37,104 nt of DNA from Escherichia coli (GTDB taxonomy: Bacteria > Pseudomonadota > Gammaproteobacteria > Enterobacterales > Enterobacteriaceae), in the NCBI RefSeq assembly GCF_003334315.1, contig NZ_QOWR01000047.1, one strand, 5' to 3'. Positions 3,112-37,104 of the stretch are shown here, piece after piece. A program made the position numbers and the translations under genes. Under the pieces are notes generated by a model. The model ran no database searches, was not told the origin of the DNA, and saw only the letters and a list, made by a program, of their open reading frames with translations. The first letter of the stretch is position 1, and each line of letters opens with the position of its first letter.

Positions 3112-3674
3112 CCGTGGAAGTGCGTCCAGAGGATCTGGACGCCGATGCCGATCAGTACCAGCCCGCCGAGAATTTCCGCTTTTTTCCCAATAATTGAGCC
3201 GATAAAGCGACCAACCATCATCCCTAATGTTGACATAATCAAGGTTGCACAACCAATGGCCAATGCGGTCGCGATAATGTTGACCTGCAGGAAAGCAAGA
3301 CCAACACCCACAGCCATGGCATCCAGGCTGGTGGCAATCGCGGTGGTTACCAGTAGCCAGAAACCGTGTCGACGGCGCGGCTCTTCATCTTCATCATCTG
3401 CGCCACGAAAACCCTCAATAATCATTCGCCCGCCGAGGAATATCAGCAGCACAAACGCAATCCAGTGGTTCCATTCAAGGACAAACCGGCTGGCTAACAT
3501 GCCCATTCCCCAGCCGATCAGCGGCGTCAGGGTTTCGACGGCACCAAAAATAAGGCCGGTTCGCAATGCTTCAGAAAATTTCGGTTTATGGAGGGTGGCA
3601 CCTTTACCGATTGATGCAGCAAATGCATCCATCGACATACCAAACGCAAGAAGAACAGTAGCAGTGATATTCAT
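3108..3674 (-). CDS. mntP: manganese efflux pump MntP (188 aa)
   Basis: Start placed at the internal ATG (plus 3672-3674) giving [21 protein letters not shown]..., which is 188 aa; the 206-aa track ORF extends 18 codons upstream. Multi-pass membrane protein with an acidic loop ([14 protein letters not shown]). Confidence 0.88.
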
Positions 3675-14810: not shown

Positions 14811-14868
14811 CACACTAATCCGTATCGATTTCGTTATAGAAGCCGATGAACATTTGATTGTGAGAAAA

Positions 14869-14901
14869 AGGACGCTTTTTATATGTGATTAAAAGCGTCC
14901 T
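14869..14901. terminator. hairpin between convergent yoaH and yoaC (possible bidirectional terminator)
   Basis: Perfect 11-bp inverted repeat AGGACGCTTTT / AAAAGCGTCCT with U-rich stretches on both strands. Confidence 0.5.
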
Positions 14902-14929
14902 GACCCATTTATGCTGATATAAATTTAAC

Positions 14930-15229
14930 TCAGACCAGTGCTTTTAGTTCTTCCTGCATATATGTTGAAAAGTATTCAGGATTTTTAATCACAGAGCGTT
15001 CACCTGTCTCCATTTTTTTTGCCCATCCAACCATTTTTTCCGTGAACCCAGGGTTCCAGCCTTCCTGGTCAGCTCGCGCTGTAATATCAGCGGCACTCGC
15101 GGGTACTCCCAGTTCTTTTAAATATTTAAAGATTCCCTTCGCCGTGCTTTCATTCATCGAACTTGGTGTTGGCGCTGATACATCCATGGCACCAATGAAA
15201 TCCAGGGCTTTATCTATTACAGCAGGCAT
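14930..15229 (-). CDS. yoaC: DUF1889-family protein YoaC
   Basis: Track ORF is 119 aa; start placed at the internal Met (MPAVIDKALDFIGAM...) giving 99 aa, the K-12 length as I recall it; start uncertain. Confidence 0.7.
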   Translation of the reverse strand: MPAVIDKALDFIGAMDVSAPTPSSMNESTAKGIFKYLKELGVPASAADITARADQEGWNPGFTEKMVGWAKKMETGERSVIKNPEYFSTYMQEELKALV

Positions 15230-15651
15230 ATTCTTATCCTTAAAATTAACCATGTTATCGATAAGACTATATATGACCTTAATTTGCATCTAATATCAAA
15301 GGGATTATAACGATATGGCACGAGTTAACCTGTTGACATTCAGGTGTTTTAAAGGTAGCAGCTCATGGTGTGTTATCCAGTAAGATGGAGAAATTTAACG
15401 GTCAGTCCTCACGCTATAACCAGATTATTCAGCTAAGAAAGAAAACCAGAGTTGCTAGTCAGAGGGCGAACACAACGGCATGGTTATGGTTATTTATATA
15501 GTTAGTTTTATAGATAAAATTGAAATTATAAAAATAAATAATGAATTAGCAGGAGCATCAACAGGTAATATCTTAATCTCTGGTCGATTTATGTTAAACC
15601 GACCAGTATTATCGATAAATTATCGTCTGACTTATTTTGCTTCGATAAAGC

Positions 15652-15996
15652 TTACACCGCAGCCACAATCTTAATTTCAACTTTATACTTCGGGTTCATC
15701 AAACCCGCTTGTACCGTGCAGCGCACCGGCGCATGACCCGCGACAACCCAGGCATCCCACGCTTTATTCATCGCCGCGAAGTCGTTTTTATCGGCCAGGA
15801 AAATGGTGGCATCCAGAATGCTCGATTTATTGCTGCCCTGTTTTTCCAGCACGGCATCAATCTGCGCCAGCGTGTTGGCGGTTTGCTCAAAGGCATCGGC
15901 GTCGAGGTTTTCCGGTACACCAGTGTAGTAGAGCGTGTTGTTGTGGATTACCACATCAGACCAGCGGGCTTCAGCATCGATACGAACGATAGTCAT
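15652..15996 (-). CDS. yoaB: RidA/YjgF-family protein YoaB
   Basis: Start at MTIVRIDAEARW... gives 114 aa; the adjacent in-frame Met one codon upstream is equally possible. Confidence 0.85.
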   Translation of the reverse strand: MTIVRIDAEARWSDVVIHNNTLYYTGVPENLDADAFEQTANTLAQIDAVLEKQGSNKSSILDATIFLADKNDFAAMNKAWDAWVVAGHAPVRCTVQAGLMNPKYKVEIKIVAAV

Positions 15997-24729: not shown

Positions 24730-26175
24730 TCAGTTGTCGCCTTTGAATACGGTTCCCGCAGGGAGCACTGGCGTTTTTTCCAGGGCTTCAACCGGTGTCT
24801 GCGGGAGATAATGTTCAACTTGATGAGCCGGAATGTCGGCGTAATCCTGTTTCAGCCAGCGAATAAACCCGCCGACTTTCACCAGTAAAATGACGAGGAA
24901 GGGAAGGGCTGTGAGCACGACGGTGGTTTTCATCGTTTCCAGCGAAGCACCGGTAAACAAGATGGAAAGCGGGATCAGAGTGATCACCACGCACCAGAAA
25001 AGACGCAGCCCACGGTCAGGATCGTCACCTTCCTGGAGATTACGCGTACTGGTCGCCGCCATGGTGTAGGCCACTGCATCCATATGCGAGGCAAGGAAAA
25101 TAATCATCACGCCCAGGTATGCGGCGAGGAACAATTTACCGGCTGGCAACGACATCAGAACTTGCTGTACAGCTGTTTCGCCGCCCAGTGTTTCCAGCAC
25201 CTGTGGGACGTTGATTACGCCATTGATAAACTGATGAATGGCATAGCTTTCCATTACGCCAAAGAAGAACCAGCAACCGACGGTGCTGCCGAGGATCAGT
25301 CCCCAGATAACTTCTTTAATCTTACGACCGCGGGAAACGCGGGTGACAAACATTGCTACGCCAGGGGTGTATGAGATCCACCACAGCCAGTAGAAAACGG
25401 TCCAGTTGCGGGTAAATGAACCATCGCCAAGCGGATCGGTGAATAAGCTCATTTGCAGGAAGTTTTGCGTGGTCAGGCCGATGGCATTGATGATGCTGTT
25501 GGTAATAAATTCGGTTGGGCCGACAATCAGCACCAGTAATGGCAGCAGGAACGCGCCCCAGCCAACCATTTTGCTCAGACGTTGCAAACCGTTGTTGATA
25601 CCAATCCACGAGCTTAGGCAAAAAATGCCGCCGGAAAGCAGGATCACAAATGCCTGCACGGTGAAGTTATCGGGTAAACCGGTCAGCGCGGAAAGCCCAC
25701 GGGTAAAGGTTGCTGCGGTAACAACAAGGGAAATGGTCAGTGCGCCGACAGTGGCGATCAGGAACATCAAATCGACCAGTTTTCCCCATGGGCCTTGCGG
25801 GCGAACGCCGGTAATAGCAGCAATAATGCCGGAAAGGCTCAGACCTTTGTTTTTCCGCACATGAAAGTGATAAGCCATGATTAATGAGGCCAGCGTATAA
25901 GTTGCCCAGGCGCTGATGCCCCAGTGGAAGAAAGAGTAGGGAACGCTAAATTCGAGTGCCTGTTGTGAACGCGGTGCGATATTTAATCCAGGCGTTTGAT
26001 AATAATAGGCCCATTCAGCAACCCCCCAATAAAGCGTAGAAGAACCTAAACCGGCACAAATAAACATAAACAGCCAGGAGAGCGTGCTGTATTCCGGTTT
26101 TCCTTCGCCAAGACGAATATTGCCGTATTTACTGGTGGCTAAATAAATCACCAGTCCCATTGCCAGCAAAACCAA
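24730..26175 (-). CDS. yeaV: BCCT-family transporter YeaV
   Basis: 481 aa; the segment [22 protein letters not shown] aligns with the CaiT/BetT region I recall; the first codon is TTG (plus 26173-26175) with a stop 16 codons upstream. Confidence 0.85.
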
Positions 26176-26319
26176 TACCTGTACGGCGGAACCTAACGTA
26201 CGCGTAACAAAATTTGCATGTTACATAAATTAAACAATTAAGAATACGGAAAGCCATAAAACACGAAACGGAAACAATAAAAGGTGAAATGACGCAGGTT
26301 ATTTACTGCAAAGAACGAA

Positions 26320-35831: not shown

Positions 35832-37027
35832 TCATGAACGGCTGTTTTTGTTCTGCTTATTGACATATAAACGCTCATCGGAAGCTTTATACGCATCATG
35901 TAACGTATCGTTTTCTTTCATCGCGTAAATACCGGAAGAGAAGCCGATCTCTTTCTGCGGCGCGATATGTTGCAGACGTTTTTCGATACGTTCAGGCAGT
36001 TGTGCTGCAATTTGCGGCGTCGAATCGACAAGAATGATGCAGAATTCATCGCCACCGAGTCGGATGGCATAATCACTTTTACGAATCGACTGTTTAATCG
36101 CCTGAGCTAATAACGTAATCGCTAAATCCCCCTCCTGATGACCGAGGGTGTCATTTATTTGCTTTAACTTGTCCATGTCAATAGCAATAAACATCACCGA
36201 AGAACCGGATTGCACCAGTTTCTGCAACCGCTGCTCCAGTTCAGGGGTTAAAATTTTGCGATTATACAGTCCAGTCATCGCATCACTAATATTTTCTCGC
36301 GACACATTTTGGTATAAACGGAAGTGCATCCGCACCATATTCAGCAAAATTAACGCCGTCAAAATCCAGAACAGAACGCTTTTCCACGAAGACGTGATAA
36401 AGTAAAGAATATCAATGGATAACGAGACACGAATGCCGCCCGGTAAGTCATGGACGTAACTGACATACTGGAACAGATTATCTTCGCTCTGGTTGATGAT
36501 AATGTCGCGCCCCGAATCGGTATCGGTTAGCGTGACATTGAGAAAACGCCAGAGGAGAGGGCGGTCATGAGTATAAAAGATATTCCGCAGATTGTTTTTG
36601 TTAATATCCAGCAGCACAATCCCTTTTAGCTGCCCTGCGACATATACCGGCGTCAGCAAACTCATCACGTTCTGTTTAGTACGCTGATCCTGGTAAATGC
36701 TCGACAATACGGTACGCCCGGTAAATACCTTTTCAATATCTTTGCGATCGATGCCAATACTTCCTGACTGCAGGAAGGACCAGTTATTCATCGCAAAGTA
36801 TTCAACATTAACCGGCTCATAAAAATAGACATAGCGGTCATTGAGATCGAGATAATAGTGAAATTTCTCTTCGGCCATCCCAAGACCTGAACCGTAATCA
36901 TCCTGGTGGCGGTTGCCTTCCACTGCCTGATCAAAAGCGGGTAATAGTGCTGCAGCTTCCACAATTGTGTCGCAGTCAGTGGATGCGGTTTGTAGTGTGC
37001 CGCGTAAGCCCGGGTATTTATGGGCAG
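35832..37027 (-). pseudogene. dgcJ: diguanylate cyclase DgcJ (YeaJ), 5'-truncated by an IS insertion
   Basis: GGDEF motif (RLGGDEFCIILV) and one TM segment. The ORF cannot extend upstream: stops occur in all three minus frames within 37039-37067, and the first 12 codons of the 410-aa track ORF are IS-derived. About 398 native codons remain versus about 496 aa recalled for K-12; a periplasmic-type sensor region with no upstream TM or signal peptide. Confidence 0.7.
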
Positions 37028-37104
37028 TGGATTGGCCCCTATATTTCCATACACTTTTTATCACTTAACCCATTACTGGTTCGCCGCCGCAGATATTCCC
37101 GTGG
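37028..37104 (-). mobile_element. IS3-family (IS2-like) insertion sequence, terminal 77 bp (element continues off the right edge)
   Basis: Minus strand reads ...PREYLRRRTSNGLSDKKCMEI-stop then GGTTAAGTGATAAAAAGTGTATGGAAATATAGGGGCCAATCCA, close to the IS2 OrfB C-terminus and right inverted repeat as I recall them (roughly 85% similar by eye, not identical). Terminus at plus 37028. Confidence 0.75.

Follow-up and report, generated by a model that had tools for sequence, protein, structure and literature searches.

Two DNA-binding proteins, YhaJ and YeiE, are already documented at the region upstream of yoaC in Escherichia coli. ChIP-seq of the LysR-type regulator YhaJ returned yoaC among its targets in both EHEC and UPEC, with peak-shape scores of 10.4 and 21.1 in EHEC and of 7.2 and 2.3 in UPEC (Connolly et al. 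2019, PMC6765310, SI Tables S3/S4). The predicted T-N11-A box is TTATAGATAAAATTGA in both EHEC and UPEC, and the table of that paper places it 66 bp from the peak centre, a distance that matches our own mapping (PMC6765310). The gene is listed five times in a four-strain data set (PMC7315121), and the authors of the earlier paper name yoaC among the known YhaJ targets and regulated genes (PMC6765310), while a yhaJ mutant of UPEC showed changed expression for none of the ChIP targets. Using ChIP-exo, Gao et al. (2018, PMC6237786) found that YeiE binds at yoaC on the upstream side of the RNA polymerase site, and their paper takes this gene as its example of an activating upstream mode. A further system to be compared is that of AT-rich islets silenced by H-NS, for which the 10-mer TCGATAAATT is quoted as a high-affinity nucleation site in E. 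coli (PMC7145609).

We analysed the AT-rich spacer between yoaB and yoaC in a 37,104-nt stretch of E. coli DNA (hereafter the window), where the gene order is pabB(-), yoaH(+), yoaC(-), yoaB(-) and yoaA(+). The spacer is 100% identical to that of strain CP53, the gene map agrees, and the DNA is E. coli chromosome. The features that define the locus are as follows.

14930-15229, minus strand: yoaC (DUF1889), the gene served by the spacer, 99 aa, GC 0.447, as annotated in RefSeq and K-12
15230-15651, minus strand: the yoaB-yoaC spacer, 422 bp, GC 0.332, consisting of the yoaB 3' region and the yoaC upstream control region
14811-15651, no strand assigned: the insert of low GC found only in Escherichia, 841 bp, GC 0.375, which fills exactly the interval from the yoaH (+) stop codon to the yoaB (-) stop codon
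14811-14865, plus strand: 5' remnant of a pentapeptide-repeat gene, of which E. coli sensu stricto has about 20 nt left, adjoining a deletion of some 450 bp
14869-14901, no strand assigned: bidirectional terminator hairpin of the convergent yoaH and yoaC (inverted repeat I3)

The sequence-only reading had set the left boundary of the spacer at 15290, based on a 119-aa open reading frame ending at 15289. This boundary has to be moved, as yoaC starts at 15229 in both the RefSeq and K-12 annotations, with a Shine-Dalgarno sequence AAGGA at 15237-15241, 7 nt 5' of its ATG. In both E. albertii and K. aerogenes, indels of 1 nt interrupt the in-frame extension upstream of this ATG, and the ATG of the extended gene is mutated in E. 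coli strain A33. The 119-aa and 107-aa starts of yoaC were thus ruled out by conservation. Since yoaC starts at 15229, the true spacer is 15230-15651, and since yoaB and yoaC are both on the minus strand with yoaB upstream, the spacer unites the yoaB 3' flank with the control region 5' of yoaC.

The strong AT-richness claimed for this stretch is real, since its GC content is 0.345 over 15290-15651, 0.332 over 15230-15651 and as low as 0.20 over 15480-15560, against 0.513 for the coding sequence and 0.50 for the whole window, and the AT-rich string that had been quoted as an example is present. However, it is unexceptional among intergenic DNA. Among the window's 31 intergenic regions with a length of 50 bp or more, the spacer is lowest in GC content, yet it is just slightly under their mean of 0.398. 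Several of these regions have values of 0.34-0.35, and two further 200-bp stretches of the window are more AT-rich. Among complete E. coli genomes, the spacer was found in 5412 of 5426, with 90-100% identity (at least 95% in all except 12); it is single-copy as a rule (median 1 place per genome) and carries no annotated feature. The AT-rich stretch is a real yet ordinary intergenic control region, largely known already. Elsewhere in the window, yeaV (24730-26211) is annotated as a pseudogene without its N-terminus in the present strain, and a truncated gene with a diguanylate-cyclase domain adjoins an IS5 transposase at the right end (35832-37104).

Comparison with sister genera shows where the spacer belongs. 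We examined loci with YoaH orthologues from Salmonella, Citrobacter farmeri, Klebsiella and Enterobacter; in all four, yoaC is missing, and a mere 0-7 bp separate the yoaH stop codon from that of yoaB. As yoaH and yoaB abut in these outgroups without yoaC, the segment 14811-15651 is an Escherichia-specific insertion. The abutting stops are found near position 3180-3200 of the respective loci (L022-L025), and with convergent stops this close, the two transcripts must end within each other's coding sequence in the four sister genera. A distribution scan with YoaC as the query and one genome per species recovered the order yoaA-yoaB-yoaC-yoaH-pabB solely in Escherichia, namely, in cryptic clades, E. 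whittamii, E. albertii and one divergent 'E. coli'. The insert is carried by six Escherichia loci, and the Escherichia spacers are 271-470 bp long (the longest, 470 bp, in E. albertii) with a GC content of 0.33-0.36. A check of conservation across the Enterobacteriaceae had been proposed for the spacer; it turned out to be lineage-specific and variable in length, rather than conserved everywhere.

Outside Escherichia, the homologues of yoaC lie in neighbourhoods unrelated to yoaA-yoaB-yoaH-pabB: beside fis/dusB in Buttiauxella, following a diol-dehydratase reactivase gene in Citrobacter, in K. pneumoniae following an MFS transporter gene, in K. aerogenes within a group of uncharacterised genes, and in Lelliottia at a locus without yoaB, yoaH and pabB. 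As in genomic islets, we thus see presence in a single lineage, an empty site in sister lineages and a patchy distribution of the cargo gene. A search within 14811-15651 for an integrase, a tRNA target or flanking direct repeats found none of these mobility signatures, the repeats there being short. We conclude that an 841-bp segment was inserted between the abutting yoaH and yoaB stops in an Escherichia ancestor, bringing yoaC with it.

The insert originally held a second gene, which has since been deleted in E. coli. Escherichia sp. E1V33 (L004, 3390-3842), E. whittamii and strain RMDEC465 (L033, 3097-3549) have an intact pentapeptide-repeat gene of 150 aa between yoaH and yoaC. This gene is present in the cryptic clades of Escherichia and in a small number of genomes that bear the label E. 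coli, RMDEC465 being an example. The gap between yoaC and yoaH ranges from 119 to about 550 bp across Escherichia, which suggests independent decay events, and the insert is evidently decaying. The terminator hairpin on this side of yoaC has folding energies of -17.0 kcal/mol on the minus strand (z = -5.5) and -15.5 kcal/mol on the plus strand (z = -3.7).

We then considered how the spacer itself is constrained, using an alignment of six Escherichia lineages and the pairwise diversity among seven E. coli strains. The two data sets agree on three parts, i.e., a hairpin segment, an AT-rich core and a conserved segment proximal to yoaC, within which the following features can be placed.

15580-15606, minus strand: yoaB 3' hairpin, stable, 46 nt past the yoaB stop codon
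15371-15575, no strand assigned: AT-rich variable core of about 205 bp, pairwise diversity 0.048
15304-15309, minus strand: perfect -10 hexamer TATAAT of the putative yoaC promoter, without a recognisable -35, with a predicted start near 15297
15230-15297, minus strand: yoaC leader, including the Shine-Dalgarno sequence AAGGA (15237-15241)

The pairwise diversity is 0.008 in the proximal 141 bp (15230-15370) and 0.021 in the hairpin segment, while third codon positions of the flanking genes have values of 0.02-0.08. When Escherichia species are compared, the core is rich in indels, and a deletion has removed about 190 bp of it in Escherichia sp. MOD1-EC7003. The core drifts at a near-neutral rate.

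The yoaB 3' hairpin folds with -16.3 kcal/mol on the minus strand (z = -6.1) and is weaker on the plus strand (-11.9 kcal/mol), and double compensatory changes maintain three of its nine base pairs across Escherichia species. Its stem is followed by AGAGAUUAAGAUAUUA, and there is no U-tract on either strand, hence it is no canonical intrinsic terminator. The hairpin is probably a 3'-end or terminator-like structure of yoaB. A perfect 10-bp palindrome, TTATCGATAA, occurs twice, at 15255-15264 in the yoaC leader and at 15609-15618 just past the yoaB hairpin, the two copies being 354 bp apart. The distal copy overlaps the H-NS-type 10-mer, and the pair is not conserved beyond E. coli and E. albertii. 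The two copies could be paired sites of a protein that dimerises or bridges, or could have arisen by chance in AT-rich DNA.

The proximal segment contains the elements expected of a promoter and leader. The TATAAT hexamer is identical in five of the six Escherichia sequences (GATAAT in E. whittamii), and a palindrome ACCTG-N8-CAGGT is located at 15328-15345. A promoter and terminator scan of the spacer found promoter-like sites no more common than in shuffled sequences and no terminator-like site; the scan overlooked the perfect -10 at 15304-15309 because this hexamer has no -35. We compared the leader (window 15230-15310) with the loci of yoaC homologues (L008-L021, L026 and L027), and found that it is conserved in Klebsiella, Buttiauxella, Citrobacter and Lelliottia, with DNA similarity ending about 25-80 nt 5' of the ATG. 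The yoaC homologues of six genera, in their unrelated neighbourhoods, have about 80 nt upstream in common, reading CTCTTTGATAT ... GGTTAATTTTAAGGATAAGA-ATG. No consensus RNA structure or covariation was found in the yoaC leader across the six genera. It seems that yoaC moves together with its own leader.

Against this anatomy we placed the published and predicted binding sites, which are as follows.

15508-15523, plus strand: published predicted YhaJ (LysR-type) T-N11-A box TTATAGATAAAATTGA, an exact match to the motif in PMC6765310
15337-15352, minus strand: promoter-proximal YhaJ-like box TTAAAACACCTGAATG, 13 of 16 positions identical to the published yhaJ/yhaK box
15612-15621, plus strand: H-NS nucleation 10-mer TCGATAAATT, an exact match, overlapping the distal palindrome TTATCGATAA (15609-15618)

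The TTATAGATAAAATTGA box sits inside the very string that had been quoted to illustrate AT-richness, and forms the middle of an AT-rich, imperfect palindrome of 52 bp with arms at 15490-15508 and 15523-15541. Two of the seven E. coli strains have an A-to-C polymorphism at 15514, within the box, which is poorly conserved beyond E. coli. The box has two mismatches to the idealised YhaJ dyad TCAA-N5-TTGA, and no site in the spacer matches this dyad with at most one mismatch. Moreover, it precedes the predicted start by about 210 bp and the ATG by about 280-295 bp, whereas LysR-type regulators usually have their recognition site near -65 and an activation site near -35. We mapped the CFT073 peak of YhaJ (2045235-2045664) to window positions 15370-15799, with centres at 15571-15589. 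Because of the 66-bp offset, the two mismatches and the lack of a good dyad site, the exact YhaJ contact site is uncertain. The segment ATAAAATTGAAATTA of the YhaJ box (15514-15528) is matched at 14 of 15 positions by the reverse complement of 15672-15686 at the 3' coding end of yoaB, and the CFT073 peak centres lie roughly between the two copies, a pair that might explain the offset between peak and motif.

The proximal box TTAAAACACCTGAATG overlaps the ACCTG-N8-CAGGT palindrome; together they extend from about -31 to -55 relative to the predicted start, the box itself from about -40 to -55. The sequence of this region, CCTGAATGTCAA, is conserved in five of the six Escherichia lineages. Matches to the yhaJ/yhaK box with at most three mismatches number two in the 37-kb window, against 0.4 expected, and both are within the insert. 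The other match, TTAAAAATCCTGAATA, has three mismatches and is located at 14973-14988 (-), within the yoaC coding region. The sequence at 15337-15352 may be a second YhaJ box.

Taken together, we consider it probable that the spacer joins the 3' end of yoaB to the region controlling yoaC, inside an 841-bp foreign insert, with its occupancy by YhaJ and YeiE already published. In this model, the hairpin at 15580-15606 would end or protect the yoaB transcript, next to an H-NS-type nucleation motif, and the AT-rich core of about 205 bp drifts near-neutrally and carries the YhaJ T-N11-A box (15508-15523). The conserved 140 bp (15230-15370) comprise the YhaJ-like box with its palindrome, the -10 without a -35 and the translation-initiation region. 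A perfect -10 without a -35 may mark an activator-dependent promoter, and YhaJ and YeiE, by occupying the region, would activate an otherwise weak yoaC promoter. The AT-richness would be a legacy of foreign origin and weak constraint, which may also recruit H-NS. The earlier suggestion of an H-NS-bound regulatory region is thus partly borne out: the published YhaJ ChIP-seq and YeiE ChIP-exo occupancy and the box match speak for a regulatory region, but the documented proteins differ from H-NS.

A reading in which the spacer is chiefly H-NS-bound, with nucleation at TCGATAAATT, spreading over the core, repression of yoaC and counter-silencing by YhaJ and YeiE, is possible, and we hold it only tentatively. 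The insert is of foreign origin and is lacking in four sister genera, with a GC content of 0.33-0.375 as against 0.50 for the window. The exact TCGATAAATT at 15612-15621 is the sole copy in the window and is conserved in all seven E. coli strains and in several Escherichia species, and the perfect palindrome TTATCGATAA stands at both ends of the spacer, 354 bp apart. However, the GC content of the spacer is barely under that of other intergenic regions, an AT-rich tract of 840 bp is less than H-NS filaments typically span, and the TCGATAAATT motif was spotted after the fact. Judged from these motifs, H-NS binding is a plausible addition to the YhaJ/YeiE control region described above, compatible rather than competing with it.

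It is also conceivable, albeit unlikely, that the core is a newly evolved distal operator specific to E. coli, at which YhaJ, and perhaps YeiE, would bind about 280 bp upstream, reach the proximal box through a DNA loop and counter H-NS nucleated at TCGATAAATT. If true, the locus would show in compact form how a core regulator can capture a foreign gene by drift in AT-rich filler. A less likely variant is a YhaJ-controlled non-coding transcript arising from the overlapping plus-strand promoter-like site.

That the core derives by decay from another gene or from a mobile element (a pseudogene, IS or MITE) brought in by the insert appears to us improbable. The insert is visibly decaying, with the neighbouring pentapeptide-repeat gene deleted in E. 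coli, and the length of the spacer varies among species, as such a remnant might lead one to expect. However, when seven Escherichia spacers were translated in six frames and compared with the loci of other genera, their fragments matched the shared yoaC leader and nothing else, and three open reading frames of the spacer have no NCBIfam match above cut-off. A YciY match of one spacer ORF scored 15 bits against a cut-off of 30 and was discarded as chance. Terminal repeats typical of mobile elements are also absent, and the spacer is single-copy in E. coli without genuine homology to plasmids or phages: a blastn search against both gave no phage match, and the matches in the plasmid collection were mislabelled chromosomes or yoaC homologues. 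The sequence-only reading had raised a decayed insertion as one option; this is right insofar as the spacer lies within the 841-bp Escherichia-specific insert that holds yoaC, but the spacer is not a remnant of an IS or repeat.

Still more doubtful is an unannotated sRNA, which had been raised as well. It would be a plus-strand transcript running from about 15527 to the hairpin at 15580-15606, or an RNA derived from the yoaB 3'-UTR. A sigma-70-like plus-strand site at 15493-15520 overlaps the YhaJ box, and the stable hairpin lies downstream of this promoter-like site. AT-rich foreign DNA often bears spurious promoters. However, an Rfam search of the spacer with E-values up to 10 gave chance-level matches only, far below the gathering scores, and with no Rfam match and no terminator-like site, an sRNA is unsupported. 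Furthermore, the promoter-like sites occur at shuffle frequency, the plus-strand form of the hairpin is the weaker one, and folding the 102-nt candidate gives a z of just -2.3. The core is unconstrained, with a diversity of 0.048 comparable to that of third codon positions and a deletion in one species, the hairpin alone being conserved; a literature search by the name of the intergenic region found nothing.

Finally, the reading that the 64-aa ORF (15480-15674, +) or the 43-aa ORF (15370-15501, +) is a real small protein is effectively refuted. Both are open in the window strain, and the former had been correctly noted in the spacer. However, a frameshift truncates the 64-aa ORF in K-12 and in the five further strains examined, so that it is open only in the window strain. 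Radical substitutions have built up in the 43-aa ORF, which is interrupted by a stop codon in strain A33, and neither ORF has a family match above cut-off or is conserved across species.

With the control region of yoaC thus preferred, the results are of limited reach. The region belongs to the E. coli core genome, its occupancy by YhaJ and YeiE is published, and it matters little beyond annotation. What is added here is modest, namely, the boundaries of the spacer, the recognition of the Escherichia-specific insert, and the location of the YhaJ box in the least constrained part of the spacer. The locus opens no new question, and is a small, handy case for how a foreign gene gets wired into host regulation.

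Compared with known systems, the spacer resembles other long intergenic control regions of the same window, such as the 668-bp yebO-yobF and the 428-bp mntP-yobD regions, which are alike in length and GC content (0.35-0.38) and in having a promoter, a leader and regulator sites; unlike these, it is missing from sister genera, and its distal half is weakly constrained. Like acquired AT-rich islets silenced by H-NS (with the proU-type motif TCGATAAATT), the insert is lineage-specific, low in GC and carries the exact 10-mer, but it is tiny (0.84 kb, one gene) and fixed in essentially all E. coli, and its H-NS site is putative. The nearest counterparts are the YhaJ target promoters of yqjF, ybiJ, yhaK and yhhW. 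Unlike theirs, the yoaC box is a poor match to TCAA-N5-TTGA, lies about 280-295 bp upstream of the ATG instead of adjacent to the promoter, and is embedded in fast-evolving foreign DNA, and the YhaJ dependence of yoaC is putative. Nevertheless, yoaC shares with these promoters the ChIP-seq occupancy by YhaJ, a T-N11-A box and a small target gene of unknown function.
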